Positions 2,571 to 54,323 of a stretch of DNA of 64,000 nt are shown here, in pieces. The position numbers and the translations under genes are program-made. The notes under the pieces were generated by a model that was not told the origin of the DNA, searched no databases, and saw nothing but the letters and a program-made list of their open reading frames with translations. The stretch comes from a virus (lineage: Duplodnaviria > Heunggongvirae > Uroviricota > Caudoviricetes). The number at the start of each line of letters is the position of its first letter. The stretch's first letter is position 1. The DNA lies in the IMG/VR virus record IMGVR_UViG_2937414065_000001; one strand, 5' to 3'.

Positions 2571-2592
2571 GATAAGTAAGTAACTACCTATC
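2571..2592 (+). promoter_or_regulatory. 22-bp palindromic motif B (GATAAGTAAGTAACTACCTATC), 11 nt before the ATG at 2603
   Basis: One of at least 17 copies of the consensus GATAGGTAAGTA-n-TTACCTATC in intergenic positions. Confidence 0.55.
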
Positions 2593-2602
2593 GGCGGAGC
2601 AC

Positions 2603-3328
2603 ATGAGCCAGATCTTCTTTAACACTATTAACAACGACCAGTACGACTTCATGACCGAGTGGGACACCACAGTCATGGACAAGTGGGTGGCCGAGAATAT
2701 TGGGCTGTCACGCTGCAAGGATGAGGCTGAGTTGTTCGAGACAAAGTGGTTTGATTACCGCGACATGCACCCGCTTATGGCCACATGCCTCTTCACTGAG
2801 ACGTACAAGCGCCAGTACTCATACATCATGCTGTCGCATGGCCGTGAACACTATGAGACGGCCCAATTTACTACCGGTTTGAAACGTGTGCCGTATCAGG
2901 AGCTGTCGACGGCCAACAAAACGTCTCTCTGGAAAGCACGCCAGTTTGCCGACCAGTACTGCTGCTCTTATGACTACTTCATTTCTACCGTTCTTTCCGC
3001 AGCTGCACGCCGTCTGTGGGACAAATTGCCGCGCCCCCAGCATCTCTGGCAGCCCGAGCTGATCGAGATATTCGAAGAGAAGTTAGCCAAACGCGCTGTA
3101 ACCCGTCTGGATGACTCTCTGGTGAGTTTTAAGCATCTGGGAGACATGCAACACGACCCGATTCAAGAACGCTATTTTGAGTGGGTTCTGGAGCGTCTGC
3201 GTGGCATTACCCGAGACAAACGCGTCCGCATCATCTTCTCCGCTGTCTGGTTGATGGAAATCGTGCCTGAGCGTGTGATTTACGCGCACTTCCCGGAAGA
3301 ACTGGAAGAAGCACGGCGATTCTGTTGA
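2603..3328 (+). CDS. hypothetical protein (241 aa)
   Basis: ORF sits directly downstream of motif B. No family I recognise. Confidence 0.5.
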   Translation: MSQIFFNTINNDQYDFMTEWDTTVMDKWVAENIGLSRCKDEAELFETKWFDYRDMHPLMATCLFTETYKRQYSYIMLSHGREHYETAQFTTGLKRVPYQELSTANKTSLWKARQFADQYCCSYDYFISTVLSAAARRLWDKLPRPQHLWQPELIEIFEEKLAKRAVTRLDDSLVSFKHLGDMQHDPIQERYFEWVLERLRGITRDKRVRIIFSAVWLMEIVPERVIYAHFPEELEEARRFC

Positions 3329-3354
3329 TCCCCTATCTGGCTTTTTTAGTATTA

Positions 3355-3370
3355 GAAAACAAATTGTTTA
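3355..3370 (+). promoter_or_regulatory. motif A (GAAAACAAATTGTTTA), 20 nt upstream of the helicase start
   Basis: Palindrome AACAA-A-TTGTT. Confidence 0.5.
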
Positions 3371-3388
3371 AGCACCAAAGGAAAGCAC

Positions 3389-4729
3389 ATGACCGAACTT
3401 TGCCACACAGGACGAGGGTTGTCTGAAGAGTTCGACGACGACTTCCAGAATCGACTCGCAGCCTACTTCTGTCGCGACCATGAATTTCTGACTCGCGCGG
3501 GTGATCTGGTTGCGCCAAACCAGTTCTCCAATGCGGCCAACGCCATTCTGGTGAACATGGTGTCGGGCTACTACAGAATGTATAAGAGCGCACCATCATC
3601 GTCGGCCATCCTCGACATGCTCAAACGCGCCAAACGCGATAAGACGATCCGCGAAGAGCTTTTCCCCGACGTTGTTGAGGCGTTTAAGAGGATTCTCGCT
3701 GAGAAGCTGTCAGATACGGCGTACATGGTCGACCAGGTCGCGACGTTTGCCAAAAGCGTAGCGTTCGACGACGCGCTGATTAAAGCGGCTGAGATGAAAG
3801 AGAAGGGCGATTTCCAGGGCGCGATGGCAATCATGGCTAAAGTCCAGCAAATCGGCTCTAACGAAGCGACCGGCATTTACGATTACTTCTCTGAATCAGC
3901 AGAGCGTTACAAGGCGCGTGAGTACGAAGCGTCCGACGATTACGTGCCAAACAGCATCACAACGGGTCTACCGCTGCTCGACAAGCTGCTTTACCAGAAA
4001 GGCTGGGCTAAGCGTGAGATGGTGCTGTTCATGGGCTTCGCGAAGTCTGGTAAGTCGACGGCGATGGGTGAGTTCTCCATCAACGCTACGCTTGCCGGTT
4101 ACAACGTCCTGTATCTGTCGCTGGAAGTTCACACCTCCATTCTGTCAGATCGCTTTGACGCCCGTTTGTCTGAGACCGAAATGTCCAAGCTGGTGGAGCG
4201 CCGCGACGACGTCCATCGCAAACTGGCAGAACTGGGCGCGACGAAAGGCGTGGGGAGCTTGTGGATTGTTGAGCGACCGTCCGGAAGCATGTCGCCTGCA
4301 GATCTGGATCGCATGTTGGGCAGCATGAAAGCCAATGGCATGATCCCCGACATGGTCGTGGTCGACTACGCCGACCTGATGCGTGCCAGCTACGACCTCC
4401 GCGACGACCGCGCCAACATTCGCAGCATCTACACTGACCTGCGTGCGCTGTACGACAAACACAACGTTGCCGGTATCACAGCATCGCAGACTAACAGGGA
4501 AGGTGGCGCTTCTGAGGTGGCCACAATGATGCACGCAGCGGACAACATCGAGAAGGTGCGTATCGCTGACCTCGTTATCACGATCAACAAAACGGAAGAG
4601 GAAGAAGCGAAAGGCGAAGCGCGTCTGTACTTCGCTGGTTCACGTAACCAGAAAGGTGGCGTAAGCATCCGCGTTAAGCAGAACCTCGAACAAATGCGAT
4701 TCATCGAACGAATTATGGACGTCCTCTAA
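3389..4729 (+). CDS. DnaB-like replicative DNA helicase (RecA-fold)
   Basis: Walker A GFAKSGKST; Walker B-like VVVDYADLM; SQTNREG motif. RBS AAAGGAAAG lies upstream. Confidence 0.8.
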   Translation: MTELCHTGRGLSEEFDDDFQNRLAAYFCRDHEFLTRAGDLVAPNQFSNAANAILVNMVSGYYRMYKSAPSSSAILDMLKRAKRDKTIREELFPDVVEAFKRILAEKLSDTAYMVDQVATFAKSVAFDDALIKAAEMKEKGDFQGAMAIMAKVQQIGSNEATGIYDYFSESAERYKAREYEASDDYVPNSITTGLPLLDKLLYQKGWAKREMVLFMGFAKSGKSTAMGEFSINATLAGYNVLYLSLEVHTSILSDRFDARLSETEMSKLVERRDDVHRKLAELGATKGVGSLWIVERPSGSMSPADLDRMLGSMKANGMIPDMVVVDYADLMRASYDLRDDRANIRSIYTDLRALYDKHNVAGITASQTNREGGASEVATMMHAADNIEKVRIADLVITINKTEEEEAKGEARLYFAGSRNQKGGVSIRVKQNLEQMRFIERIMDVL

Positions 4730-4818
4730 AAAAAGAAGGCGTGGGGAAACGCTCTCCACGCCGGTCTCCATAAGAGAACAAATTTTCTCTTTTGCCAAAG
4801 CCACAAAAGAAAAAACAC

Positions 4819-6003
4819 ATGAGCCTTTATGGTATTCAAATACCGAGGCTTATCAAGATATTACCTGCAAAAAGTAGGGTTAAGAACGTGAGCGACTTGA
4901 AAGAATTACTGACCGAGCTGGATTTTGAGCAATGGCTCGATATGGAAGGAATCATCTACCGTCGTGGTGGCGTCAGTACTCGTGGACGTGAGGTGAATAT
5001 CAAGGAGTGCCCGGTATGTGGCAGCTCAAACTGGAAGGTTTATTTCAATCTGACCAATGGCGTCGGCAAATGCTTTGCTGGTGATCATCCCGAAGAGATT
5101 CAGTTCAACAAGCTGGTCTTCCTCAAGCACTACAGCGGCAAATCCCGTCGCGATTTTGAAGAGTACGTCCAGAACGCGCTGATCTCACAAGGATGGGCGC
5201 CGAAGAAGGAAGAGATCGTGCTGGCCAGCAAGGTTGAACTCGAAGGGCCAGTAGCTCTCCCGCGACATTATGAACTCCCCATTGACGGTCGTCTTCCTGA
5301 TTATCTGGTGGAGCGCCAGATTTCACCTGAGCTGGCCAAATACTTTGATCTGCGTTACTGCGTTGAAGGCAAGCACGCATACGTCGACCCGTACACAGAC
5401 CAGGTCAAAGGACAAGTGTTCGACATGCGCATCCTGATACCAGTTTACGATCTGGATGGCGTGATGAAGACCTTCCAGGGGCGTGACATTACCGGGGCTG
5501 CAGAACGCCGTTATCTCTTCCCCATGCAGCTGCCGGCGTCGGGTAAGTTTCTCTACAACGGCCACAACGCAGTCGGAAAACAAACGGTCGTTGTGTGTGA
5601 AGGGGCATTTGACGTAATGGGCGTGAAGCGTGCCATCTTCGACGAAGAGACGCTGCGGGATTACGTGGAGCCAATTGGCACGTTCGGGATGCACTTGTCC
5701 GGAAATATGAATGAGGACGCTGAAGATCAGTTGGGCGCGTTCCTGACGCTCAAGGCGCGTGGATTACGCAACATCATCATGATGTGGGATAGCGAGAAAC
5801 AAGCGATCCGCAACACTATGTCGGCGGCCAAACGTCTCACCAGCATCGGACTGAATGTCAAAGTGGCCTGTCTGGGCGAAGAAGGTCTCGACCCCGGCGA
5901 CGCGACGCCAGAGCAGATCCTAAAAGCCTATTATCGTGCCAAGCCGTACTCCAGACAGTTGGAGCTACAAAGCAAGGTTCTAGGGATAAAGGCATTGTTA
6001 TAA
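4819..6003 (+). CDS. DnaG/T7-like DNA primase (zinc finger + TOPRIM)
   Basis: Zinc finger CPVCGSSNWKVYFN...C..H. TOPRIM motif VVVCEGAFDVMG. A TTG at 4792 is an alternative start; ATG 4819 fits the usual spacing from motif A at 4776-4789. Confidence 0.75.
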   Translation: MSLYGIQIPRLIKILPAKSRVKNVSDLKELLTELDFEQWLDMEGIIYRRGGVSTRGREVNIKECPVCGSSNWKVYFNLTNGVGKCFAGDHPEEIQFNKLVFLKHYSGKSRRDFEEYVQNALISQGWAPKKEEIVLASKVELEGPVALPRHYELPIDGRLPDYLVERQISPELAKYFDLRYCVEGKHAYVDPYTDQVKGQVFDMRILIPVYDLDGVMKTFQGRDITGAAERRYLFPMQLPASGKFLYNGHNAVGKQTVVVCEGAFDVMGVKRAIFDEETLRDYVEPIGTFGMHLSGNMNEDAEDQLGAFLTLKARGLRNIIMMWDSEKQAIRNTMSAAKRLTSIGLNVKVACLGEEGLDPGDATPEQILKAYYRAKPYSRQLELQSKVLGIKALL

Positions 6004-6479: not shown

Positions 6480-6600
6480 TCCTTTGGCCCGGCAGTCTGC
6501 CGGGCCATCTCTATGAATGTTTTGCTCGCCCTTAATGATAAGTAGATGCATACTTATTTTTCTGTAAGAATATGCTCGACGAAGGAATTGAGGAACCTTT

Positions 6601-7395: not shown

Positions 7396-7476
7396 GCCTC
7401 GAAAAACCATTTAGCCCCCTGGTGGGGCTTTTTTAAACTGCGCTCAATAAGTAAGTACACGACTACGGTTAGAAGC

Positions 7477-9834: not shown

Positions 9835-10136
9835 GCAATTTGACCTCTTTCGACTGGTGGCTGGCAACCTACCTTGTGGCGGCTGGCTTCGGATATGCCT
9901 TTTACATTGGTCAGTTAATCGTAAAGCTACTGCTGATCAGATTTGCCAGCCATAAACGCATAGACGACGGTCTGTGGCGCCTGGGTTCTCTGCTGGAGAC
10001 TCACTACGGCGAACTCAAGGAGAACGAAACTATCACTATCCAAGCGAAGCGTTTTACGGCCATCATCACGAGAACGCCGGAACAGAAGGTGAGTTTGATC
10101 AAAAAGATAGCAACTGAACGAGTAACAGAAAAATAA
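9831..10136 (+). CDS. membrane protein (101 aa)
   Basis: ORF with an N-terminal transmembrane helix; start overlaps the upstream stop (ATGA). Confidence 0.4.
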   Translation: MSNLTSFDWWLATYLVAAGFGYAFYIGQLIVKLLLIRFASHKRIDDGLWRLGSLLETHYGELKENETITIQAKRFTAIITRTPEQKVSLIKKIATERVTEK

Positions 10137-10885
10137 GTATTTACTTACTTATCTATTATGTATAAGATTCATTTGTTTTCGTTGAGACGCGACTGTTTGA
10201 ACGTTAAATATAACTGCAAACGAAGATACGTACCTGGCAGTAGCCTAAGAAGCCAAACACCAGCGAGGTCAGTTTCCAGCCTCGTCACCGAAATGGGACA
10301 CACTGAGCGAGTGTGATTGCAGAACGCAGGATAGGGCATGTTGCACCACCCATGCCCTATTCGATGAAGTAACAGGATGGGCGGTTGGTTTCCTCATTCC
10401 ATTCCATCATCCCGGTTTCAGCCAGCTGACCGTCCATCCTGTTACGTCATTTCCATTACTTATGTCGTTTAATCTTGGGTTAAAAGCGGCGACGTAACCC
10501 GGCTGGCTTGGTTAGCCAGCGCACAACGTTGAGGTCACTGTTTTTTCTTTTAATCATACAGGTGATTCCACAGAGCTGTAGTGACTGATCAATATGTTGG
10601 GTCGAACATAAATCGGTTCAGTGGCCTCAACGTTGTGAAAGCAGGATTCTTTAACCCTCTGGTGAAATCATTGTTGCCTATGTAGCCCCTGGTTTCACAA
10701 CATGGATGATTCCATACATCCAATAAGATCGAAGAGTCTGGCGGCCATCAACCGCCGAGAAGGATTCCAGATCTTCGCTCTATGTGAGCGAGCCACAAGC
10801 CTCGTCTAGCACTAACGTAAAGTGCAAGTTGCGGGAAAGTTCTTGGTTGCCTGGTTGTCCATGAACAAGTACCGCCGCGAAAAAT

Positions 10886-10960
10886 GATGGTGTAGCTCAG
10901 TGGTAGAGCGGTTGACTGTTAATCAACTGGTCGGTGGTTCGAGTCCACCCACCATCGCCA
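10886..10960 (+). tRNA. tRNA-Asn (anticodon GTT), CCA encoded
   Basis: Acceptor stem GATGGTG/CACCATC. D-arm GCTCAGTGGTAGAGC. Anticodon loop CTGTTAA. T-arm GGTGGTTCGAGTCCACC. 3' end GCCA. Confidence 0.8.
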
Positions 10961-12698: not shown

Positions 12699-12718
12699 AT
12701 AGGTAATGACTTACCTAT
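12699..12718 (+). promoter_or_regulatory. motif B palindrome (ATAGGTAATGACTTACCTAT) upstream of phoH
   Basis: Near-perfect inverted repeat, followed by TACTTATCGG. Confidence 0.5.
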
Positions 12719-12765
12719 TACTTATCGGTATAGTTCTTTCAGTTACTCACTTGAAAGGACTCAAT

Positions 12766-15576: not shown

Positions 15577-16686
15577 ATGATGAAAAACACCTTTGATAAA
15601 GCACGCGCAGCAGAAAACACCTCTCGGGAAGCCATCGAGTACCTCGAACGCGCTTCCGGTTTGTCGGCAGTGTCGACCGCCAAATTCGACGGAGACATGT
15701 CGTTTTCTTCCGCCTTCATGTTATTCACTCGCTTATCTTTACTGATAACGAGACGTCGACCTGAAATAGCCGTTCATTGTGTTTTGATACATGTAATGCC
15801 GCATATCTCTGAAGTAAAGGTAAGTGATATAAGTAGGGTCTTGGTCAACCAACTGGTGAACCCACTGATACTGGAAGGCAAGATCGTCCAGGGCAGACGC
15901 GTATTCTCCCTAATGAAACAGTTCCTGAGCTGGTGCGCTTTTCAGGGGCTGATTGATACATCGCCGTTGAATGATATGTCGCTCAATAAAGTTGCTGGTG
16001 GCGCGAAGCCAGTACCGCGCGAACGTAAGCTGACCGACGCCGAGGTCTGGGTATTCTGGAACGTCTGGGATTACTTCAATGTGTGTGAAGGCACAAAGTG
16101 GGCGGCCAGGCTCTGTCTTGTTGCTGCCAGACGACCCGATGAAGTGCTCCGGGCCAGAAAGGATGAGTTCAACCTTCAACGTGATGTATGGAATCAAGGT
16201 ACGCGAAACAAATCGGCCAGACAGCACGCGCTGCCGTTAAGCCCATTGATGCGTCAATGCGTGGAAGAGTTGTTCGAGTACGGGAAAGGCAGCCAGTGGC
16301 TCGTTCCTTCGAATAAGAAGAAGGGCGTAGATACGCCAATGTCTAAGGTGGCCATTGCCCAGGCACTGAGAAGGATACTGGAACGACCTGAGTTGATGGA
16401 GGTTGAGTCATTCACCCCACGCGATCTGAGACGTACAGCTCGTAGCTATTTCCCCGCTCTGGGGATTAGTCAGGAGGTGGCTCGTAAGATTATGAACCAC
16501 AGTCTTGAAGGGATAGATCGCGTCTATGACCGCCACGATTATATGGATGAGATGCGAGACGCCTTGAATAACTTCTCAACGTACATCGCATCCATCGTTA
16601 ATCAAACAGACTTAGACGAGATAGACCACAAATTCAAGGGAGATCGTCTAGCCACCGAGCTTATTCGTGTAAATTTCTCACAGTGA
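15577..16686 (+). CDS. tyrosine recombinase / phage integrase family
   Basis: C-terminal catalytic motifs: R in TPRDLRRTA, H..R in NHSLEGIDRVYDRH, and a Tyr at VYDRHDY. Confidence 0.8.
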   Translation: MMKNTFDKARAAENTSREAIEYLERASGLSAVSTAKFDGDMSFSSAFMLFTRLSLLITRRRPEIAVHCVLIHVMPHISEVKVSDISRVLVNQLVNPLILEGKIVQGRRVFSLMKQFLSWCAFQGLIDTSPLNDMSLNKVAGGAKPVPRERKLTDAEVWVFWNVWDYFNVCEGTKWAARLCLVAARRPDEVLRARKDEFNLQRDVWNQGTRNKSARQHALPLSPLMRQCVEELFEYGKGSQWLVPSNKKKGVDTPMSKVAIAQALRRILERPELMEVESFTPRDLRRTARSYFPALGISQEVARKIMNHSLEGIDRVYDRHDYMDEMRDALNNFSTYIASIVNQTDLDEIDHKFKGDRLATELIRVNFSQ

Positions 16687-17064
16687 CTTGATGGCCTCAA
16701 CCACCTTTTCTGACGCACCTTGTTGACCGTCAAAACGGTTACGGAACGCTTCTAGAACGAGTTTTTCATCAGCGGAGAGAGGTGCAGTGCCCTCTTCGCG
16801 AAAAAACTCAAGCAGCTCAGGATGACGTTCTTCCAGAACCATCAGCATCAGTCGAACCGGATCTGCATCCAGCGCTTCGGCTAATGCTCGAACCTTATCT
16901 ACTGGAAGTGGGATTTTGCCGCTTTTGATGAGAGAGAGATTGTTGGCGTTCTTGTACCCAACCTCTTTGGCAATGGTAGCCTGACTTTTAGGCGAGATTG
17001 TGATTAACGAGTCAATGTAAGCTGCGTAGCGACCTTGTTTGATCTCTGTTTCGTTGGTAGCCAT
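16678..17064 (-). CDS. helix-turn-helix (XRE/Cro-like) transcriptional regulator
   Basis: N-terminal ...SQATIAKEVGYKNANNLSLIKSG helix-turn-helix. Convergent with the recombinase gene and overlaps its stop. Confidence 0.6.
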   Translation of the reverse strand: MATNETEIKQGRYAAYIDSLITISPKSQATIAKEVGYKNANNLSLIKSGKIPLPVDKVRALAEALDADPVRLMLMVLEERHPELLEFFREEGTAPLSADEKLVLEAFRNRFDGQQGASEKVVEAIKSL

Positions 17065-17615
17065 GTAGTGAACCTTGCGTGTTTTGTTTATCTCTGGTAA
17101 GTGCTTACTGATATTACAGCAAAGGCCAGGGTTGTAAAGACTTATCTATTTAATTTCGGTAGGCACAAAATCCCGGCATACCGCCATTATACTATGGTTT
17201 TTAGGCGATTTGTCACTATTCGCTTACAGAAATAAGTAAGACGTATCTGATATAGTTGCATTCCATATTGATACAATAGGTAGTAGTATTGCCGAACTTT
17301 CAAATGTGTTCAGTTGGATGATATGAAATGAAAAATATAACTTCTAAATTGACCGCCCTTGAGGTTGGACACGCATATGCGATTGGACTGGATGGCGTCG
17401 CGACGATCCTGACAGAACTAGAATCTGAAGAGCTTCCCGTGGAAATGGTTGATACGACGGTTTTCACTTTTGAGCTAAAAAATAAACATTTCACTCTCAT
17501 CAATACCGGTTGCGGCTCCCTTGCCGTGAGAACCATTTAACACACATTCCTGCCGATAGATGCCTGTACGAACAGCTTAGTCGCCTGTTCGTACAGTGAT
17601 AAATTACGCACATCA

Positions 17616-17631
17616 GAAAACAAATTGTTTT
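17616..17631 (+). promoter_or_regulatory. motif A (GAAAACAAATTGTTTT), 19 nt upstream of the cobT-like start
   Basis: Palindrome AACAA-A-TTGTT. Confidence 0.5.
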
Positions 17632-17649: not shown

Positions 17650-20022
17650 ATGTCCAAAGCCATGACCAGATCTGTGCTGAAAGAGGTACAGGACTTCCGC
17701 GACTGCGTAAAACGAGTTGTAGCGATGCTATCAGGTAAACAGATACCTGTTGCAGAGCGAGGCAATGAAGCATATGTCCGCTACAACCGGCGCGGCGAAC
17801 CAGTGCTGGTAAACATCCCATCTATACCGGACGACGCGTCACCAACCCTCATGAACGCAGTGCGTGGTTTTCTCGACCATGAGGTAGCCCATATCCTCTT
17901 TACTGATCCGAAAGTCGCAATGAAGATGCGCGAGAAAGGAAAGGCTCCGTCTACCGGGCTTTGGAACGCGCTGGAAGACGTTTTTATTGAACGCAGAATG
18001 GGACAGGTATTCAACGGAACCCGTCGCAATTTGCTTGCCACACAGAACCTGGTGATCAACAAATACTTCAAGGGCAAAGTGTCAGAGGCGGTTTCAATCT
18101 GCCACGGCAACCAGCGTGAATTGTTCCTGAAATTCTTCCTTTGCCCGGTCGTTCGCGCCTGGGATGGCCAAAGCCCTTTCATCGACTTTATGGAAGAACA
18201 CTGGCACCTCATCGATAAGCCTGTAGCCTTGCTCAAAGAGCATGGTATCGACGTGGCCGTTCGCAATATGTCGAACACAGAAGACTGCGTGAAGGTAGCA
18301 GCTGCTATCGCCCAAATCATGCAGGATATGAAAGACAAGCCAGAGGGCAATTTACCAGAGCTTAAATCGTCTGCTAGGAAGCCGTCGAAGAGTGAGGATG
18401 AGTCAGAGGAAACCCCAGAAGCCGATGACGAACCGACTCATAGTGAATCAGCACCAAAGCGTACTAAAGGCGAAGACGACGACAAGGAAGAGCAAGAAGA
18501 TGATACCTCAGAAGAGGAAGAGTCTGGGGATTCTGATTTGCCTGAATCAGTAGATAAGGACTTACCTACAGAAGATAAAAAAATTAGTGATACAGAAAGT
18601 AAATATACAGAAGCAGGCGAAGAGGAATCAGGAGCCCCCCCAGAATCCGATGATGCCGGCATGGAATCAGGTGATTCTGATGACGAAGGTGGTAGTGATG
18701 ACACTGGCTCTCCAACGCCTGGTGATGGCATTCGCGAAGACGCCGATGACTCCGATGGTTATGGCTCTGGCGCCGCTGGCGATGGGGATAGTGATAGTAA
18801 TGACGGCGAAGACTCCGATGCCGGTCACGGGGAGTCGGAAGGAGAAGGCGAAGAGGAAGATGATGCCGCCGATCACACAGACGGCGAAGGTAAAGAAAAT
18901 GAGGATGCCGCGGAAGCGCCTGAAGACAGTGAGTCAGGCTTTGTTCCTGCTCCGGATGAAATGACTTTGGAGGACGCACTCAAGGCGCTCGACGAGATGG
19001 AAGACGGAACAGGCGAAATGACCGAAGACGCACTGTCGGCCACCATCAGCAAAGAGCTTATGAGCACCTCACTTTCTGAGTATCGCCCATACGATCGTTC
19101 ATACGACTTTATCGGGTTGATTGATGAGGCTGAAGAGCATGTAAAGCGCACCAGAAAGACGTTCGGCGCAATCCCAATGCACTCACCGGTCGATCGCTAC
19201 CGCATGGTTCCGGAAGGCAGAAAGCTCTTTGAACTGAAAATCGAAAAACATCTGTCAGCAGGCGTTTCTTCGACTCTGGCCAAAGACCTGGAGCGAGCTA
19301 TCGCCAGCCGCAACCGAGTTCAGTTTATCCCAGGCCAGAGACGTGGGCGGATACATGGCGCGAACCTGTATCGTCTGGCAATGAACGACGACCGCGTGTT
19401 CCGCAAGAAAGAAGACCACAGAGCGGTGAACGCGTGCGTCCAGCAGGTGATCGACTTGTCCGGCTCAATGGGCGGCAGGAAGATTCAACTGGCACTCGCC
19501 AGCGCCTACACCATTGCGGATGCTCTGGATCGTATCAATGTGCCTAACATCATCACCGGCTTTACCACGTTTGGTAGCCCAGATTATGAAACCATGTCGA
19601 AGCGCGGGTTTACTCGTTTCGAGGCGCTAATGCTGCCCATTATCAAAAACTGGAATGAGAAAGCCAACTCTCCAGAGATCCGCGCCCGCATGGGCTGCGT
19701 GTGTGAGACGTTCCCCCTGCTCAATAACGTCGATGGTGAGAGCGTCGCGCAGCTGGCGACTCTGTTTGCAGGGCGAATGGAGGACAAGAAGATCATGCTG
19801 GTTATGAGCGACGGGGCGCCATGTGCTGCAGGCGATGGGTTCCATCAGCATTTGCGAACCGTCACCAAAGAAATTGAGACGTTGAGTGACATCGATTTGA
19901 TGGCTATCGGCGTTCTGACCGACGCACCACGGCGTTACTACAAAAATTACGCACTGGTAAACAGCGTAGAAGAGTTAGGGCCGTCAGTCGTCACAGAGCT
20001 ATCTCGTATCATTCTTGGGTAA
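17650..20022 (+). CDS. CobT-like vWA-domain protein with a ~200-aa hyper-acidic (D/E/S/G) low-complexity region
   Basis: C-terminal vWA region (VIDLSGSMGG...MSDGAP). Acidic run at about 18340-18960. Paired with a downstream MoxR/CobS-type AAA ATPase. The ORF extends to a GTG at 17596, but motif A lies inside that extension, so ATG 17650 is preferred. Confidence 0.6.
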   Translation: MSKAMTRSVLKEVQDFRDCVKRVVAMLSGKQIPVAERGNEAYVRYNRRGEPVLVNIPSIPDDASPTLMNAVRGFLDHEVAHILFTDPKVAMKMREKGKAPSTGLWNALEDVFIERRMGQVFNGTRRNLLATQNLVINKYFKGKVSEAVSICHGNQRELFLKFFLCPVVRAWDGQSPFIDFMEEHWHLIDKPVALLKEHGIDVAVRNMSNTEDCVKVAAAIAQIMQDMKDKPEGNLPELKSSARKPSKSEDESEETPEADDEPTHSESAPKRTKGEDDDKEEQEDDTSEEEESGDSDLPESVDKDLPTEDKKISDTESKYTEAGEEESGAPPESDDAGMESGDSDDEGGSDDTGSPTPGDGIREDADDSDGYGSGAAGDGDSDSNDGEDSDAGHGESEGEGEEEDDAADHTDGEGKENEDAAEAPEDSESGFVPAPDEMTLEDALKALDEMEDGTGEMTEDALSATISKELMSTSLSEYRPYDRSYDFIGLIDEAEEHVKRTRKTFGAIPMHSPVDRYRMVPEGRKLFELKIEKHLSAGVSSTLAKDLERAIASRNRVQFIPGQRRGRIHGANLYRLAMNDDRVFRKKEDHRAVNACVQQVIDLSGSMGGRKIQLALASAYTIADALDRINVPNIITGFTTFGSPDYETMSKRGFTRFEALMLPIIKNWNEKANSPEIRARMGCVCETFPLLNNVDGESVAQLATLFAGRMEDKKIMLVMSDGAPCAAGDGFHQHLRTVTKEIETLSDIDLMAIGVLTDAPRRYYKNYALVNSVEELGPSVVTELSRIILG

Positions 20023-20118
20023 TTGGTTTACCCGTAAAAATAAGTAATCACTTACTATACAGCCTAATATATTTATATAAGATATACCCCACGAACGACA
20101 AACAGTAAGGAAAAACAC

Positions 20119-21354: not shown

Positions 21355-21534
21355 TCGTGCGTAAAGGATGTTTCGGCTCTCTTATCGCAGCGTCTGAAAC
21401 TGGCCGGGCTTGTCTGGCGTGTCCGGATAGGCCCGAGTGCCACCAGTCAGCCAAAGAGGTTGCGATTTCGATGTATGGGAAGTTCGTTGGCTTCCCCAAT
21501 GACAAAATCAAGAAAACCAGAAAGGTAAAAACAC

Positions 21535-23898: not shown

Positions 23899-24596
23899 CG
23901 GTGGAAGAAGTTTGGAAATCTATTCCTGAATTTGAAGGTTATTATGAAGCATCCAGTTTGGGGCGCATTCGTTCGTTGGATGTTATCCAAACAAGCCCCA
24001 AAGGTGTCAAATGGGTAAAAAAAGGTCAAATACTTAAACCTCGTGTAATCAATGCCTTTGGACATCTGGGGGTGAAACTAAGCGTTAAGGGAATCAAATG
24101 CGACCGAACAGTTCATTATCTTGTTGCGACAGCGTTCCACGGAGAACGGCCAGAAGGCTTGCTTATTCGTCATCTTGACGGAGACCCAACAAACAATGCG
24201 CCCTGCAATCTCGCATATGGCACTCAAGTCGACAACATGGCTGACGCCATTGCACACGATACCGTAGAGTTTGGCGAGAGGCGCTATAACGCCAAGCTGA
24301 CCAACGAAGTAGTCATTGCTATTCGCATTAAAAAGTCCAAAGGCGCGCTGAACAAAGAGTTGGCGGCCGAATATGGCTTAACTGAGCTTTACATTCACCA
24401 TATCGTCACCGGAAAGAAATGGGCACGAGTTGGCGGGCCGATCGCTCTTTCAAGAGCATCCAAAAAGCTGGATGCCGAAACGAGAGCTGAGGTGGTTGCA
24501 TTGCGCAAGGCTGGCGCAACCTATGAAAAGCTGCGAGAAAAATTCGGCATATCTAACACACAAATCGCAAATATCTTAAAAAAAGCAAGCATTTGA
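23895..24596 (+). CDS. HNH homing endonuclease (NUMOD4 + HNH + NUMOD1-like)
   Basis: NUMOD4-like SIPEFEGYYEASSLGRIRS. HNH core HLDGDPTNNAPCNLAYGT. C-terminal helix-turn-helix-like segments. Confidence 0.8.
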   Translation: MTVEEVWKSIPEFEGYYEASSLGRIRSLDVIQTSPKGVKWVKKGQILKPRVINAFGHLGVKLSVKGIKCDRTVHYLVATAFHGERPEGLLIRHLDGDPTNNAPCNLAYGTQVDNMADAIAHDTVEFGERRYNAKLTNEVVIAIRIKKSKGALNKELAAEYGLTELYIHHIVTGKKWARVGGPIALSRASKKLDAETRAEVVALRKAGATYEKLREKFGISNTQIANILKKASI

Positions 24597-24615
24597 AGTT
24601 AACGACGGGGAAAAA

Positions 24616-27794: not shown

Positions 27795-27913
27795 TTTATA
27801 CTAGATCGTAAGTAAGTACTGATCTATTATTCTTCTCGCTCGAAAGAGCCACGAATAAACGAACGCCCAACGCGCATAGCGCCAATGGCCACAATCACAA
27901 CAAGGAGAAATAC

Positions 27914-31323: not shown

Positions 31324-31384
31324 TACTTGAAAATATATAGGCACTTACTTATCATTTCTACACCAAAACGACAAAAGGAAACAC

Positions 31385-33347: not shown

Positions 33348-33416
33348 ACACAATGATTGTGCGCCGCATGGCGCACATTAATATAAATAAGTACTTACCA
33401 ACAAGGAGAAGACACA

Positions 33417-33691: not shown

Positions 33692-33731
33692 TATTTACAG
33701 CAAAAAATATATAAGTTAGTATCTACCTATC

Positions 33732-34455: not shown

Positions 34456-34526
34456 TCCATTATCCACTATGGGAAGAACCACTTCCCATAGTGGTTATCT
34501 TGCCCGTAGAAGCAACATCATAGTGC

Positions 34527-35007
34527 CTACCGCTGACAGCATACGTTTGTCTAAATTCTCCTCTTTTTTACCGCTGACAGCATATCTTTTAGTCGCTCAA
34601 TTTACCGCTGACAGCATACGTTATGACCACAAGACAAGGTTTACCGCTCACAGCATATCCAAACATCACCTCATACCGCTGGCAGCATATCGGCGTTTTT
34701 CGCCTCTGTGGGCGCTCTGTCAGGACGAGAAAAACAATCAAGTTAGTGAGTGCAAACCCTTATTTCATGCGGCTTGCGGGGTTAGTGACCACTGGGGAAG
34801 TTGTCGCGGGAAATGGGATCGAAGAGGCGCGCAGACCAGATAACGGCGGGCTAATGAGCAAAATCGCCCGCTGATATCATACATTTTCTAAAAATTACCG
34901 CTCACAGCATATCTTTTTGCCGCTGACAGCATACTTTATGTGAAAAATACCGCTGACAGCATATCTTGTGCCGCTGGTAGCATACGTTTTACCGCTGACA
35001 GCATATC
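34527..35007. repeat. downstream iteron array (~10 copies of TACCGCTGACAGCATA(C/T), mixed orientation), incA-like
   Basis: Copies near 34527, 34568, 34603, 34642, 34675, 34896, 34918, 34948, 34969 and 34990. The last overlaps the repA stop. Confidence 0.75.
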
Positions 35008-36106
35008 AAAGGAGTTTCAGGCTGTTGGAGAGAATCTCGATCAGCTTGATGTTTTCGGGCGTCAGGTTCTGCGATAACTCGGTGATTTTGTTCACGAGGT
35101 TTTGTTTTGCATCGACACCAGAAGACGTGTTCTCGACCGGCTTATCCGGAAGCGCGGGCATTTCCTCTTTGACCGAAGAGGCTTTGAGCTTGGGATTGCG
35201 GCTGTGGATCTGAATGTAAATCGAGCGGCCACGCTTAATCTCGCTGTATTCGAGATAGCCCAATTCCTCCAGCGTTTTTAAGCCGTTGCGGATGGTCTGG
35301 TTCTGCGAGCTGACGTTACGACTACTCAAATTGAGTCTGGCTCGAAGCCTTGCCAGCGATACTGGTGCCGGTTTGGCTGGAAGACTTTCGATGAACGTAT
35401 ACAGCGCCTGGGCGGTCTCTTTGCGCGGCAGCTTGTTAATGACTTTTAGCTGGAGCAGCACTTTGTGGTCGAAGCGATAGAGTTCGGCCAGCTTCGGCTC
35501 TGCGTGAAAGATGATGGAGTCTTTTTGCTCGTTGTAATCGACGCTGTTCACCAGGTGAACCATCAGGAGCGAGATTTTGTTCGAGCCGTCGACGTTCTTT
35601 TCTTCATACGTGCGCTGGAAAGAGAGCGTGGTGCGCATGATCTTCAGGAGGCTGTTGGTGAGCCTGTCACGCAGCGTCTTGCGGATCTGCGACGACGGAT
35701 AGCCGCAGAATTTGGCGAACTTGGTAATGCTCAACTCGACGCGGCCACTCGGCTCCCCGTACTCGGCCAGAGAGCGCACGACGCCGACCCACGTTTTAAA
35801 ATCGTGATCCATATCCAGGCGTGGACCTGTTATCTTGATGTCGGAATACCCTTCTGAACGAGCAACCTCCAGCTGAACCAGTTCTTTTGAGGCGTCGATC
35901 TCATTAGGTCTGTTCCGCTTGCTGTTCTTTGTTCCCTTTAGCGTGGGCACGAACAAACCAAGCCTCATCAACGCTATAGGCTGAACAGTATTGTTGCTGT
36001 TTGGAACAAGATCGCCTGTGTATAGTTCGAGGGATTCTTCTTCAAAATTATCTATACTGTCGTCTAACACATTGTTTTTGGTTTCTTTTTTCTTTCGAGT
36101 GGGCAT
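35006..36106 (-). CDS. repA: iteron-binding plasmid replication initiator (RepA-like)
   Basis: Flanked by iteron arrays on both sides and followed by an oriR-like GATC/DnaA-box block. I assigned the start from RBS AAGGTG; the six-frame ORF reads further, to 36169, but that stretch covers an iteron. Confidence 0.6.
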   Translation of the reverse strand: MPTRKKKETKNNVLDDSIDNFEEESLELYTGDLVPNSNNTVQPIALMRLGLFVPTLKGTKNSKRNRPNEIDASKELVQLEVARSEGYSDIKITGPRLDMDHDFKTWVGVVRSLAEYGEPSGRVELSITKFAKFCGYPSSQIRKTLRDRLTNSLLKIMRTTLSFQRTYEEKNVDGSNKISLLMVHLVNSVDYNEQKDSIIFHAEPKLAELYRFDHKVLLQLKVINKLPRKETAQALYTFIESLPAKPAPVSLARLRARLNLSSRNVSSQNQTIRNGLKTLEELGYLEYSEIKRGRSIYIQIHSRNPKLKASSVKEEMPALPDKPVENTSSGVDAKQNLVNKITELSQNLTPENIKLIEILSNSLKLL

Positions 36107-36126
36107 GTTGACACCTTTCCGCTTCC

Positions 36127-36230
36127 AACCGCTGACAGCATACGTTATTTGCCGTTGGCAGCATACCAAAAACAGATGGCAGCATATCGCTTACCGCTGA
36201 CAGCATATCTTTTACCGCTGACAGCATACG
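36127..36230. repeat. upstream iteron array (5 copies), incC/oriR-like
   Basis: AACCGCTGACAGCATACG, TGCCGTTGGCAGCATACC, CAGATGGCAGCATATC, TACCGCTGACAGCATATC, TACCGCTGACAGCATACG. Confidence 0.75.
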
Positions 36231-36269
36231 CGAATACCCCGTGAGGCCAGACGTGGCGCGGCCTGCGAG

Positions 36270-37705: not shown

Positions 37706-37909
37706 CAGCTTTGCTGAATGGCTGCGATTATAGAGTGCGCTTTAACGGATATGAATGTTTGATACCATGTAAAAATAGGTATGTAATTACTTATATCTTT
37801 TGCGATAATCATGAACCTATACATTTCCTTATGTGCCGTGCTGACCAGATTGTTCGCCTCTCAAGCACGCTTAGAATTTGTATCAAAACAACCACAAAGG
37901 AAAAGACAC

Positions 37910-38995
37910 ATGACTGTTCCATACGGGGTGATTTCAGATCCCCATTATCATCGTTGGGATGCTTTTGCGACAACTAACTCTGACGGTCTGAACTCCAGAC
38001 TGGAGATTCAACTCGACGCAACCAAAGAAGCGGCGAGAGCCATGAAAGCGGCAGGATGCCAGTACATGCTGGTGGCTGGCGACACGTTCCATGTACGAGG
38101 CGCAGTATCACCTTCCGTTCTGCACTTTGTCACAGAAACCTACGAGTGGATCATCAAAGAGCTTGGCCTTGAAGTGGCTATGCTGGCCGGGAACCACGAC
38201 CTCGAAACTAACGACTCTGTCTACAGCGCCAACGCTGCGGCGTCGTTGCGCTCGATTGGCGTGGAGATCGTCTGCGGCAAACGCGCCCACTCCATCAAAA
38301 TGGGTGACGTTACCGTTCATATGATGAGCTGGCGCAACAACCACGCGGAGCTTATCAGCGACCTCAAGACACTGCGTTCCGGGCTGTCTGGCGACAAGCA
38401 TGACGTTGTAGTGCATACCTCGATCAACAAAGCGATCCCAACGATGCCAGATGTGGGCATCGATGCGCAGGAGCTGAAAGACATTGGCTTCCGCCTGCTC
38501 TTGTCTGGCCATTACCACAATCATAAAGAAGTGCTGCCGGGAGTGGTGAGCATCGGCGCTCTGACACATCAGAATTGGGGCGATGTGGGGTCGCTGGCCG
38601 GTTTCATGATCGTGAACCCAGACGGCACTTTCACCCACCAAGAAACCTCGGCGCCCAAGTTCGTGAACCTGGAAGACGACGTCGACGATTCGCTGATCCG
38701 CGGCAACTACGTGCGCTTCCGCGCCATCGTCGAAAGTGATGAAGAAGGCATCAAAATCCAGAACGTCCTTAAAACGATGGGAGCCAAAGGCGTCGTCTGC
38801 AACTTCATCCGCAAGGCCTCAATGATGGAAGGCACTGCCAGCACCGCAGAGACCAGCAAGATTGACAGCCTGGGTGAGTCCGTTGCGGCCTACTGCAAGA
38901 TCGTCCATGACACAGACGGCGGCTTCGACCTGAGCAAACTGGACATGTTGTGTCAGGAAATCCTGACCGAAGCAGAGAGTGCGGAGGCAGTGTGA
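37910..38995 (+). CDS. sbcD: SbcD/Mre11-like nuclease (calcineurin-like metallophosphoesterase)
   Basis: DPHYHRW, GDTFH and GNHD phosphoesterase motifs. RBS AAGGAAAAG. The ORF extends to 37811, but the N-terminal homology begins at this Met. Confidence 0.75.
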   Translation: MTVPYGVISDPHYHRWDAFATTNSDGLNSRLEIQLDATKEAARAMKAAGCQYMLVAGDTFHVRGAVSPSVLHFVTETYEWIIKELGLEVAMLAGNHDLETNDSVYSANAAASLRSIGVEIVCGKRAHSIKMGDVTVHMMSWRNNHAELISDLKTLRSGLSGDKHDVVVHTSINKAIPTMPDVGIDAQELKDIGFRLLLSGHYHNHKEVLPGVVSIGALTHQNWGDVGSLAGFMIVNPDGTFTHQETSAPKFVNLEDDVDDSLIRGNYVRFRAIVESDEEGIKIQNVLKTMGAKGVVCNFIRKASMMEGTASTAETSKIDSLGESVAAYCKIVHDTDGGFDLSKLDMLCQEILTEAESAEAV

Positions 38996-42467: not shown

Positions 42468-42488
42468 ATAGGTAAGTGCTTATCTATT
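42468..42488 (+). promoter_or_regulatory. motif B palindrome (GATAGGTAAGTGCTTATCTAT)
   Basis: Near-perfect inverted repeat between the ruvC-like stop and the terminator. Confidence 0.5.
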
Positions 42489-42495
42489 AACATGA

Positions 42496-42522
42496 GGCCA
42501 CTATATTTAGTGGCCTTTTTTA
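42496..42522 (+). terminator. rho-independent terminator
   Basis: AGGCCACTATATTTAGTGGCCT followed by TTTTTT. Confidence 0.7.
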
Positions 42523-44909: not shown

Positions 44910-44925
44910 GATAACAATTTGTTTA
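44910..44925 (+). promoter_or_regulatory. motif A (GATAACAATTTGTTTA), 32 nt upstream of nrdB
   Basis: Palindrome AACAA-T-TTGTT. Confidence 0.5.
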
Positions 44926-47112: not shown

Positions 47113-47145
47113 TGCTCATTGCAATGGTGGCCTAAGAGCCACCAT
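47113..47145 (+). terminator. rho-independent terminator
   Basis: AATGGTGGCCTAAGAGCCACCATT followed by TTTTTTT. Confidence 0.7.
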
Positions 47146-47202
47146 TTTTTTTACTCCCCTCCTAGCCTTACACACTTCTGACAGATAAACTTGTATAAAA
47201 TA

Positions 47203-47222
47203 ATAGGTATATACTTACTTAT
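47203..47222 (+). promoter_or_regulatory. motif B palindrome (ATAGGTATATACTTACTTAT), 6 nt before the thyA start
   Basis: Inverted repeat abutting the start codon. Confidence 0.5.
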
Positions 47223-52049: not shown

Positions 52050-52070
52050 ATAGGTAAGTATTTACCTATC
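52050..52070 (+). promoter_or_regulatory. motif B perfect palindrome (ATAGGTAAGTATTTACCTATC), 11 nt before the dam start
   Basis: Closest match to the motif B consensus. Confidence 0.55.
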
Positions 52071-52675: not shown

Positions 52676-52697
52676 ACACCAGTCTGGGAGTTAGTTT

Positions 52698-52766
52698 GAG
52701 AACCTGCTTCCGTATATATAAATAACTAAGTACTAATTATTAATATATACAGACGCAGGCTTTTTA
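52698..52766 (+). repeat. conserved intergenic hairpin module, copy B (TATAAATA in loop, T-run)
   Basis: ACCTGCTTCCGTATATATAAATAACTAAGTACT...ATATACAGACGCAGGC-TTTTT; about 75% identical to 2426-2492. Confidence 0.6.
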
Positions 52767-52877
52767 AGACGTGATTTCCAAACAACTCCCAGACCGTTTT
52801 ACACCTCCAGAACCCACTGGAACCCCTCTTCAGACGCTCTAGAATCGATTTTATGAACCACAGTAAGGAAAACTATC

Positions 52878-53108
52878 ATGGTATACCCGACGAACGTCGT
52901 AGCGCTCGTTGAGAGCGATTTTCTGGCCAAAGTGCGCGACATGATGAAAGATCGCGATAAGGCTTTCAGTCTCTACGAATGGTCGCTCAAATGTCTTCAT
53001 TCAGGCGAGCACAAAGAGCTGGTGGAGCAGCTGTTAGGGGAACTCATCAATGAGGTGTTTGCCCTGAACGTCCAGCTTCATGGTCGAGAAAATAATCAAT
53101 CGAAATAA
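52878..53108 (+). CDS. hypothetical protein (76 aa)
   Basis: ORF with RBS AAGGAAAAC. Confidence 0.4.
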   Translation: MVYPTNVVALVESDFLAKVRDMMKDRDKAFSLYEWSLKCLHSGEHKELVEQLLGELINEVFALNVQLHGRENNQSK

Positions 53109-53110
53109 TC

Positions 53111-53124
53111 GGTAAGTACTTACC
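53111..53124 (+). promoter_or_regulatory. motif B core, perfect palindrome GGTAAGTACTTACC
   Basis: Lies immediately after the stop of the preceding ORF. Confidence 0.45.
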
Positions 53125-53701
53125 ATTTAAAACGCAGATCGCCAGTGATAAAATCTACCCGCTTTCCGGATTGATTCCGGCAGCTCGACCTGATGGGTGG
53201 GGGATAGCGTCACTGGCGTCAGGTTTAAAAAAGCTCACTACCAGCGTAGAACCGGCACCGTTTAGGGGTTGGGGAAGGGGGAACCAAAGTGAGCAGAGAG
53301 AAGGGTCACTTTATGATTGTCGAGTCTGGAGTGTTTCGAGAGGTTGAATCCAGTACTCCCCTTCATAAAGTGTGGGAAGATCTCGGTTCTGGGGTGCTGT
53401 CATCCATAACTTCCCAAGCCTAAGCTGGCAGTAGACTTAGGTCATAACTTTTCAGGTTATGTAACGACCAGGTTGGTGAGGAAATTTTGTACTCACCTCC
53501 CTGGGAAAGTATTACCTGAAAAGACAACCTCTCACTTCGTTCGAGGTGAACTTCACTCACTTCGTTCGTTCAGTTCAGGTTTTATTAAAACCTGTTCTGG
53601 GAAGTAAGTTTTTCTTTTCTAAAAATTTTTAATATTTACACGCACGCGTGCGCACACGCGCGAGGAAAAAAATCGTCGCGGCGCGCGATTCTGGAGCCAA
53701 A

Positions 53702-54310
53702 ATGACGACCAAGACCCCAGCCCGGCAACATACTGGCTGCCGCACGAAGTCCAAAGCCAGATACCAAACCCACCAGCAATCCCGTACCAACTTCAAAACC
53801 CCCGTAGTCGAGTTCAATCCCCAGCTCAAAACCGTAAAAGTATTCAGTGATGGCTCTTGCCTCAAAAATCCGGGCGGGCCGGGCGGTTACGGCATCGTTC
53901 TCCAGTATCGAGGCGAAGAGCGCGAGCTTTCTGAGGGCTTCCACAGCACGACCAACAATCGGGTGGAGATGATGGGCGCCCTGATTGCGCTGGAGCGTCT
54001 GAAGTACCCCTGCAACGTGATCCTGCATTCCGACAGCCAGTATTTAAAAAACGGCATGACGCTCTGGATGAAAGGCTGGAAGCGTAACGGATGGATCACG
54101 TCTGAGAAGAAGCCAGTCAAAAACGTCGATCTCTGGAAACGTCTCGATTCGGCCGCCAGCCGTCACAATGTCCGCTGGAAGTGGGTTAAAGGTCATGCCG
54201 GTCATCGCGAGAACGAAATGTGTGACCGCCTGGCGAAGATCGCCGCCTACTCCGCAGCTGATATGCCTCACAAGCGTGACATTGGATTTTTGTCACAAAA
54301 TGATAAGTAA
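53702..54310 (+). CDS. rnhA: ribonuclease HI with a ~45-aa basic N-terminal extension
   Basis: [29 protein letters not shown]...[18 protein letters not shown] aligns with E. coli RNase HI from residue 1. The true start is uncertain; the ORF extends to 53648 through a GC-rich palindrome. Confidence 0.75.
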
Positions 54311-54323
54311 GTATTTACCTATC
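54302..54323 (+). promoter_or_regulatory. motif B palindrome (GATAAGTAAGTATTTACCTATC) overlapping the rnhA stop
   Basis: Matches the 2571-2592 copy. Confidence 0.5.

Follow-up and report, generated by a model that had tools for sequence, protein, structure and literature searches.

We analysed a 64,000-nt stretch of viral DNA (Caudoviricetes; IMG/VR record IMGVR_UViG_2937414065_000001), referred to here as the window, which belongs to an SSU5-like phage-plasmid and carries many copies of one short palindrome in its intergenic DNA. Between positions 17000 and 37000, the window shares 95.5% identity with Salmonella phage SSU5 and 98.5% with a Citrobacter amalonaticus plasmid, and it matches 828 plasmid records from Klebsiella, Escherichia, Enterobacter, Yersinia and Salmonella. 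Phage-plasmids of this SSU5-like family occur very commonly in Enterobacteriaceae and include the pHCM2-type plasmids, relatives of Yersinia pestis pMT1 and the Klebsiella pKpn group. Antibiotic-resistance genes have been found on such elements (PMC9600943). The region covered by the window is that of replication and nucleotide metabolism. It was compared with three annotated complete relatives, SSU5, Escherichia phage Cyrano and Klebsiella phage pJN2-26, the last two being only ~80% identical to the window at the DNA level, as well as with an Escherichia coli lineage, L047 (103-kb contig ABZCOC010000014.1, GCA_050572525.1; 20 kb examined), a Serratia relative, L044, and a further lineage, L130.

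The consensus of the repeated element is a perfect 20-bp palindrome whose halves read ATAGGTAAGT and ACTTACCTAT (also written ATAGGTAAGTACTTACCTAT), weakly and symmetrically extended to 26 bp by A-W-R on the left and Y-W-T on the right. With up to two mismatches allowed, the 12-mer GATAGGTAAGTA gave 20 strand matches against 2.1 expected, a number reached by none of 100 shuffled sequences. A weight-matrix scan of the window returned 15 non-overlapping sites of at least 19 bits (Table 1), with shuffled sequences giving 0.15 matches of at least 9 bits each. Fourteen of these strong sites are intergenic, the one at 18550 being the only exception, as are 20 of the 21 in Cyrano, whose genome is 87% coding (binomial p = 4e-17). 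The intergenic siting proposed in an earlier reading of this DNA, hereafter the original prediction, is therefore borne out, and the motif does not occur at a similar frequency inside coding regions. The same scan found no strong site in the defence island (55-64 kb), from which the prediction had likewise reported the motif to be absent. Its list of 17 copies stands in large part: 14 are full sites (2571, 6537, 10132, 12699, 27804, 31337, 33387, 33709, 37775, 42468, 47203, 52050, 53111 and 54302), whereas the copy at 20038 is degenerate (12.3 bits, with the right arm out of register), that at 7447 is a left half (6.7 bits) and that at 17230 is a half-site at most (-0.4 bits). Two sites had been overlooked: a cobT-like coding sequence contains a copy at 18550 (19.4 bits), and a helix-turn-helix (HTH) gene has a conserved core variant on its promoter (17093-17112). 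The remark that all copies share one orientation is meaningless, because the consensus is a perfect palindrome.

At a threshold of 16 bits, 22 sites are present in SSU5, 21 in Cyrano and 20 in pJN2-26, at orthologous positions across the lineages. Beyond the region of the window, they occur in the terL/portal gap, inside the 3' end of the portal gene and after the major capsid gene; further copies precede the major tail gene and the holin gene or lie between tail genes. The palindrome is thus present in the early (replication) as well as the late (structural) operons of the relatives. A dispersed, many-copy intergenic site running through the lytic genes, with 15 strong copies in the window and 20-22 per complete relative, is what is found in the class of repressor operators. 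Across the window, Cyrano and pJN2-26, identity reaches 93% in the arms and 75% in the four central bases, against 41-48% in the flanks. Among 2.9 million IMG/VR contigs, all exact matches to the central 18-mer lie in DNA aligning to an SSU5-like element. In a Photorhabdus element encoding a 52%-identical homologue of the HTH protein, the arms ATAAGTAA...TTACTTAT are kept at equal spacing around a different centre. A site for a host transcription factor was considered and rejected, given that exact matches are confined to the SSU5-like phage family; to our knowledge, the palindrome is also unlike the consensus sequences of Fur, LexA, NrdR, TyrR and IHF. The motif sequence was not found in any paper of the searchable literature.

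Table 1. Copies of the palindrome in the window and the gene of the candidate binding protein, in order of position (distances in nt; promoters are predictions).
Feature	Sequence	Position	Score (bits)	Context
Palindrome	ATAAGTAAGTAACTACCTAT	2572..2591	27.9	ATG 2603 11 nt downstream, Shine-Dalgarno GGAG between; orthologues SSU5 33600, Cyrano 31296, pJN2-26 74983
Palindrome	ATAAGTAGATGCATACTTAT	6538..6557	22.7	Extended -10-like TGTAAGAAT 5 nt later; ATG 6601 at 43 nt
Left half-site only	ATAAGTAAGTACACGACTAC	7447..7466	6.7	18 nt past terminator 7413-7429; membership doubtful
Palindrome	ATAAGTATTTACTTACTTAT	10133..10152	27.1	Heads tRNA/accessory region; identical in SSU5 41773, Cyrano 38252
Palindrome	ATAGGTAATGACTTACCTAT	12699..12718	26.4	phoH start 47 nt on; overlaps predicted -35 of ATGACT-17-TATAGT (12706-12734)
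Candidate binding protein, 128-amino-acid XRE-type HTH		16678..17064		Adjoins integrase gene
Core variant	TCTGGTAAGTGCTTACTGAT	17093..17112		Spans -10 end and predicted +1 of leftward HTH-gene promoter TTTACA-16-TAATAT (17138 to 17111, minus strand)
Palindrome	GTAGATAAGGACTTACCTAC	18550..18569	19.4	Inside cobT-like coding sequence; orthologues SSU5 43661, pJN2-26 91932, L047 8598
Degenerate copy	AAAAATAAGTAATCACTTAC	20036..20055	12.3	cobT-like/cobS-like gap; weak orthologues SSU5 45120, Cyrano 45280, L047 7199
Palindrome	GTAAGTAAGTACTGATCTAT	27808..27827	22.0	gp32-like SSB gene (ATG 27914) 86 nt on; orthologues SSU5 52175, Cyrano 52659, pJN2-26 99981
Palindrome	ATATATAGGCACTTACTTAT	31333..31352	21.0	16 nt past terminator 31297-31317; fills spacer and -10 of predicted TTGAAA-17-TATCAT
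Palindrome	ATAAATAAGTACTTACCAAC	33383..33402	22.8	ATG 13 nt on; Shine-Dalgarno AAGGAG directly 3' of palindrome
Palindrome	ATAAGTTAGTATCTACCTAT	33711..33730	23.8	Holds -10 of predicted TTTACA-17-TAGTAT (33694-33722); ATG 33732 1 nt later
Palindrome	ATAGGTATGTAATTACTTAT	37775..37794	27.6	Extended -10-like TGCGATAAT 6 nt later; true sbcD start ~115 nt on
Palindrome	ATAGGTAAGTGCTTATCTAT	42468..42487	27.4	Between predicted -35 TTGATA and -10 TAACAT (spacer 17); nrdA start 42534
Palindrome	ATAGGTATATACTTACTTAT	47203..47222	28.0	57 nt past terminator 47123-47146; thyX start ~17 nt on
Palindrome	ATAGGTAAGTATTTACCTAT	52050..52069	30.7	Adenine methyltransferase ATG 12 nt on
Palindrome	ATCGGTAAGTACTTACCATT	53108..53127	20.8	Directly upstream of predicted TTTAAA-17-TAAAAT (53126-53154), with upstream TG
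Palindrome	ATAAGTAAGTATTTACCTAT	54303..54322	30.2	GC-rich terminator-like hairpin 54402-54422 ~80 nt on; next gene 54452

The information content of the motif is mirror-symmetric, including the weak outer positions -2 to 0 and 21 to 23, which lie outside the part that could pair in RNA. Among 64 distinct sites, positions 4 and 17 combine as A/C in 16, A/T in 11, G/T in 13 and G/C in 17 cases, which amounts to no covariation, and none is seen at 5/16, 8/13 or 9/12 either; the two arms vary independently. One conserved copy serves the HTH gene, which lies on the opposite (minus) strand. Judged from these sequence features, the palindrome is very probably a DNA site for a dimeric protein. Three roles had been put forward in the original prediction, namely RNase III-type processing sites, translational operators and dimeric DNA operators of a phage regulator, and only the last of these is supported: by the mirror symmetry and independent conservation of the half-sites, by their variable placement over predicted promoters, and also by the conserved copy on the promoter of the HTH gene that the prediction had named and by one concerted change of recognition helix and half-site.

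Most sites overlap a predicted sigma-70-like promoter, in registers that differ from site to site. The palindrome lies between -40 and +12 relative to the promoter, and the best -10 falls at palindrome positions 18, 21, -3, 12, 35, 7, 29 and others, within an overall range of -8 to +50. At 31333 and at the portal-gene site, the palindrome forms the spacer plus the -10 of TTGAAA-17-TATCAT; TTGAAT-18-TATACT is predicted before the major tail gene; and at 6538, 37775 and SSU5 84178 an extended -10 (TGTAAGAAT, TGTCATAAT, TGCCATAAT or TGCGATAAT) follows 4-6 nt past the palindrome. The layout at 6538 is repeated in SSU5, Cyrano and pJN2-26, and the relatives have TGTCATAAT or TGCCATAAT at the same distance from the 37775-type palindrome. 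At the 52050-type site, a predicted extended -10 (TGnAAAAAT) runs over the left edge in the relatives, with TTGCCA-17-AAAAAT plus an upstream TG in Cyrano and pJN2-26, and the 12699 site has orthologues upstream of phoH in pJN2-26 and in L044 and L047. Three copies follow intrinsic terminators (that at 7413 precedes 7447, 31297 precedes 31333 and 47123 precedes 47203). Each promoter/palindrome layout is kept across three lineages, and the sites have no common palindrome-to-promoter distance and no directional -10 beyond the symmetric edge of the palindrome itself. This variable register therefore fits the operator of a repressor, which tolerates it, and not the site of an activator, which does not. 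Promoter scores are higher in gaps that contain the motif than in motif-free gaps of comparable length (9.35 versus 7.45, p = 0.006), a comparison that is partly circular because the AT-rich palindrome itself supplies hexamers. No promoter was predicted in the terL/portal gap and similar very short gaps. The possibility that the palindrome is itself a sigma-70 -10/-35 was rejected, as its internal hexamers, TAAGTA and TACTTA, lack a conserved final T and have no constant -35 partner.

The candidate binding protein matches PHROG 8, 'transcriptional regulator' (E = 1e-11), and reaches 18 bits against Pfam HTH_31, below the cut-off of 27; a sequence search of the PDB with this protein gave no match. 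In its AlphaFold model (predicted local distance difference test, pLDDT, 77), an N-terminal five-helix domain is superposed by Foldseek on C.AhdI, 434 Cro and lambda cI at ~1.9 Å over 63-65 residues, so that the predicted N-terminal domain has the XRE/Cro/cI fold. On the coding strand of its gene, the promoter TTTACA-16-TAATAT is directly followed by the palindrome core ATCAGTAAGCACTTACCAGA, which covers the -10 end and the predicted +1. This layout was found in five lineages (the window, Cyrano, pJN2-26, L047 and L130), while in the Serratia relative a full site overlaps the -35 of the HTH-gene promoter instead. Within the L047 immunity region, the palindrome stretch on this promoter is also the one segment for which megablast finds a match in other E. 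coli elements. The Cyrano homologue, CYRAN_45, is expressed in lysogeny and was regarded as the putative repressor by the authors of that study (PMC9928086).

Homologues of the HTH protein show 47-98% identity and are encoded mainly on contigs as long as SSU5-like elements (~100-116 kb). The recognition helix NNLSLIKSGK is identical in 81 of 85 loci, even though the identity of the homologues falls to ~50%, and this invariance parallels that of the palindrome arms. L047 is the sole lineage with a clearly altered helix (KYQNQVSF, KYQNQVSFIKSGK; ANNLSL replaced by QNQVSF), despite its protein being 81% identical to that of the window, compared with 66% for Cyrano. In the same lineage, T is the base at position 4 of 6 half-sites out of 14; the figure elsewhere is 8 out of 182 (Fisher p = 9e-5). 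The changes to T fall at sites whose orthologues in other lineages bear A or G. Such a pattern would be expected if operators track a change in the specificity of their repressor. A search for further lineages with altered helices yielded only four close relatives in a scan of genome contigs and no L047-lineage member in IMG/VR; phage, plasmid and complete E. coli collections contained no close match to the L047 immunity region.

SSU5 differs from the other elements in this part of the genome. A block at ~10.3-17.5 kb of the window (phoH, gp49, grxA, a YafO-type toxin gene, the integrase gene, the HTH gene and a 70-amino-acid open reading frame) is missing from SSU5 at 41.8-42.7 kb. The integrase gene, the HTH gene and the divergent 70-amino-acid frame, all absent there, are all present in Cyrano and pJN2-26. 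Because the whole HTH/integrase block is missing, SSU5, the reference phage of the family, may be an immunity-deletion variant, and its gene content fits a plaque-forming derivative of this kind.

Considering these data together, we favour, with a probability of roughly 0.55, the reading that the palindromes form a dispersed operator regulon in which the XRE protein, as immunity repressor, binds and represses lytic promoters. Each half of an HTH dimer would read one ATARGTAA arm, the arm centres being ~13 bp apart, and the dimer would sit on the sigma-70 promoter cores that head lytic transcription units, anywhere from the -35 region to +12. Since most sites overlap predicted promoter cores, occupancy in the plasmid prophage would block initiation at many dispersed promoters together. 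In the structural operon, sites that lie in short gaps and have no predicted promoter may hinder read-through as roadblocks, and the weaker copy on the -10/+1 of the repressor's own promoter would provide negative autoregulation.

Published per-gene RNA-seq of a Cyrano lysogen places nearly all plus-strand lytic genes at background, with expression of toxin-antitoxin pairs, the parA operon, repA, a LexA-like gene and CYRAN_45; ciprofloxacin induces Cyrano (PMC9928086). Within these data, expression rises by 2.4-3.7 log2 from one gene to the next at four motif sites (genes 11>12, 33>34, 55>56 and 59>60); three of these step-ups are seen in macrophage-grown cells and 33>34 in every condition. 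High-scoring promoters are predicted at three of the step-up sites, and 33>34 has an extended -10 just downstream. Seen by orthologous site, the Cyrano gene after the 6538 site is up 2-3.4 log2, the genes after the 31333 site are up 3.6 log2 over the upstream gene in macrophage-grown cells, and genes 60-62 at the 33711-type site show a step-up of 3.65 log2. These increases fit promoters beneath the palindromes that leak once repression relaxes. A few larger step-ups are found elsewhere, one at a motif site (39>40) and two at gaps without the motif (80>81 and 97>98).

Several observations weigh against a repressor regulon. The published Cyrano RNA-seq does not display a uniform expression step at the sites; in lysogens the median change there is slightly negative (B6 condition, p = 0.006), macrophage-grown cells show a few large step-ups, and some genes directly downstream of sites, such as CYRAN_34 and those of the tRNA region, are expressed. 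The drop from CYRAN_30 to CYRAN_31 in lysogens (up to ~200-fold) was rejected as evidence of a roadblock, because a long terminator hairpin, not the palindrome, accounts for it. The promoter calls are consensus matches and partly circular, and the role given to sites in short gaps without a promoter is a guess. The covariation of helix and half-site amounts to one lineage and one event, with 7 sites in 20 kb, and every protein of the L047 lineage has diverged, not the HTH protein alone. SSU5, which has no HTH gene, retains 22 good sites, and this would be equally expected of a factor acting in the lytic phase. As to the terminator just mentioned, it lies after the parA operon (window 2430-2500, Cyrano 31150-31225) and consists of a long perfect hairpin, GACCTGCTTCTGTAT...ATACAGAAGCAGGTC, with a T run behind it; the loop of the hairpin contains a degenerate palindrome.

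The main rival, which we regard as unlikely, is that the palindrome belongs to a class of phage-specific middle or late promoters at which a phage activator recruits host RNA polymerase, as Lpa does in P1; the copy on the HTH promoter would then serve to shut off the repressor during lytic growth. That sites head many lytic transcription units, several of them right after terminators, is compatible with such a class, as are the step-ups in expression at some sites in stressed lysogens and the retention of all its sites by SSU5, which lacks the HTH gene and is presumed lytic. About half of the sites also have TAT(C/T)AT, resembling a -10, at their right edge. This edge is mirrored on the left at a similar frequency, which makes it part of the palindrome and not a directional promoter element. 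The Lpa repeat of P1, likewise a conserved inverted repeat at phage promoters in a plasmid prophage, has a fixed position beside a canonical -10, whereas the palindromes studied here have neither a fixed register (the best -10 starts at -8 to +50) nor a directional -10. Moreover, several sites lie between or on good -35 and -10 hexamers, where a bound dimer should occlude the polymerase, and because the sites span early and late genes alike, the motif marks no temporal class.

Quite unlikely, too, is binding by another genome-wide factor, be it a global regulator resembling ParB or KorB, a nucleoid organiser or a protein of replication or recombination. The element encodes two ParB-like proteins, and the parB-like gene with which the late operon begins has a site just upstream of it in both Cyrano and pJN2-26. 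Dispersed palindromic operators at variable positions relative to promoters are, furthermore, a property of the KorA and KorB operators of plasmid RK2. Against this, expression of the ParB-like CYRAN_119 and CYRAN_120 does not rise above background in the lysogen, no site accompanies the other annotated regulator, CYRAN_114, and among regulator genes a conserved copy on the gene's own promoter was found for the XRE HTH gene alone. Nor does anything link the sites to the replication origin, whose iterons differ from them in sequence.

A role in RNA, as a processing site for RNase III or a phage endonuclease, a stability element or a translational operator in polycistronic mRNA, appears very unlikely, although all sites are intercistronic on the transcribed strand of plus-strand operons and the consensus could form a 9-bp stem with a GUAC loop. 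The perfect hairpin of ~9 bp described in the original prediction holds for this consensus only: the predicted folding energies of real copies range from 0 to -8.3 kcal/mol, and 4 of 15 do not fold. RNase III substrates need roughly two helical turns, and the sites of T7, which are similarly repeated as inverted repeats between cistrons of phage transcripts, are long interrupted double-stranded stems conserved as structure. Here, by contrast, the stems measure at most 9-10 bp and are weak, AU-rich and often mismatched, no extended stem is kept by compensatory changes, and G.U is not commoner than A.C among the mismatches on the mRNA strand (56 versus 51). It is the sequence, not the pairing, that is conserved, with a symmetry reaching beyond the stem, and one copy lies on the promoter of a minus-strand gene. 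At the gathering threshold of Rfam 15, no palindrome was matched, the tRNA at 10886-10957 being the only match in the window.

The translational variant meets similar difficulties. Most copies had been said to end 5-15 nt before an ATG, too close for a promoter and over the Shine-Dalgarno position. Measured to start codons supported by a ribosome-binding site and by the annotation of the relatives, the distances are 1, 11, 12, 13, 17, 32, 43, 46, 47, 86, 115 and 129 nt; only five sites lie within 17 nt of a start, and most true starts are 30-130 nt away. Several of the ATGs used before are artefacts of taking the longest open reading frame, and the argument against promoters was built on these mis-called starts. 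At sites near a start codon, such as 2572, 33383 and 52050, the Shine-Dalgarno sequence is found 3' of the palindrome. It is therefore not sequestered, and neither it nor the start codon forms part of the stem.

The idea of selfish or neutral repeats, such as miniature mobile palindromes without a regulatory role, can be set aside as most improbable, for although short palindromic repeats are known to spread in the intergenic DNA of some bacterial genomes, the copies here are only 20-26 bp long without a flanking repeat unit, occupy orthologous positions in lineages ~80% identical with arms far better kept than flanks, and vary in a position-specific manner, as binding sites do.

Some individual sites have further features. 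At 33711, the downstream frame of 54 codons, encoding a membrane-like protein, has no Shine-Dalgarno sequence, and the layout is kept in three lineages; because its ATG lies 1 nt after the palindrome, with a transcription start predicted at or near the ATG, the mRNA may be leaderless. At 42468, a strong terminator hairpin (42494-42517) directly follows the -10, and the predicted transcription start (~42500) falls inside its 5' arm, a layout kept in SSU5, Cyrano and pJN2-26. Upstream transcripts could thereby terminate while those begun at this promoter are spared. A short leader or a small RNA could be encoded between the 54303 palindrome and the hairpin after it.

A second dispersed palindrome, GAAAACAAATTGTTT (core AAACAA-w-TTGTTT), gave 15 strand matches against 3.0 expected. 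Its copies (528-542, 3355-3369, 17616-17630, 32484-32498, 44910-44924 and 57547-57561, with a weak one at 4774-4788) lie mostly ~20-90 nt upstream of plus-strand genes (parA-like, dnaB, cobT-like and nrdB), in gaps without the main motif. The copy at 57547 is in the defence island, and another is found upstream of cobT in L047. This palindrome may be the operator of a second regulator. Many lytic plus-strand starts share a uniform translation-initiation context, AAAGGAAAAACACATG (for example at 4797-4822, 21513-21540, 31366-31388 and 37888-37915), which also occurs in L047.

Around repA (35006-36169, minus strand), ~17 iteron-like direct repeats (TACCGCTGACAGCATA) at 34516-35010 and 36115-36233 presumably constitute the plasmid origin and copy-control arrays. 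The gene dnaE, for the alpha subunit of DNA polymerase III (21535-25785), is split by an HNH/NUMOD4 endonuclease reading frame (23895-24596); in SSU5 and Cyrano it is uninterrupted. On the minus strand, the defence island (55115-63884) encodes a type I restriction-modification system, with hsdR at 57851-60967, hsdS at 61084-62331 and hsdM at 62328-63884, and, at 55115-57184, a 689-amino-acid protein with a PDC-M36A-like C-terminal region.

Several known systems resemble the proposed regulon in part. The C1 operators of P1 also belong to a plasmid prophage in which one immunity repressor acts at many dispersed operators on lytic promoters. They are, however, asymmetric, 17 bp long and of unrelated sequence, and C1 is not known as an XRE-type protein, whereas the SSU5-like palindrome is symmetric, 20 bp long and found throughout the structural operon as well. 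P1 has 45 or more transcription units; C1 governs early expression, and control of the late genes is indirect, by way of Lpa and 11 late promoters (PMC10695390). The cI and Cro proteins of lambda and 434 and the C proteins of restriction-modification systems share with our candidate the XRE-fold dimer, the palindromic operator and an operator on the gene's own promoter, but act at few operators clustered in one or two control regions, in contrast to the 20-22 dispersed sites described here. The large prophage SPbeta has copies of the repeated element SPBRE dispersed over its length, to which its master repressor MrpR/YopR binds; the Gram-positive host, unrelated sequence and different repressor family set this system apart. 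The stoperators of gp71 in mycobacteriophage L5, ascribed to Brown et al. (1997), reportedly number ~20-30 in short intergenic gaps of early and late operons and are said to block transcription across the prophage. L5 stoperators are 13 bp long, asymmetric and orientation-dependent, in contrast to a 20-bp palindrome that lies mostly over predicted promoters in an enterobacterial host. Neither sequence nor architecture suggests homology with the sites of these two phages, and the regulon would resemble theirs by analogy of function and not by descent. No description of lysis-lysogeny control in SSU5-like phage-plasmids was found in the searchable literature, and the switch proposed here seems to be of an ordinary kind, not previously described for this clinically common family.

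In its broadest form, which is conceivable but doubtful, the proposal would have a single XRE repressor of 128 amino acids silence a phage-plasmid of ~100-110 kb through 20-22 or more operators, including elongation roadblocks at sites without a promoter in the structural operon and within a coding sequence, as a Gram-negative, palindromic counterpart of the stoperators, with changes in the helix and at position 4 giving rise to heteroimmune lineages among co-circulating clinical phage-plasmids. If the repressor reading is true, the motif maps the whole repressor regulon together with the lytic transcription units, gives a named candidate repressor and provides a simple specificity code, relating half-site position 4 to the recognition helix. 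The mechanism itself would be conventional, and immunity, heteroimmunity and induction in the SSU5-like family would become directly testable.

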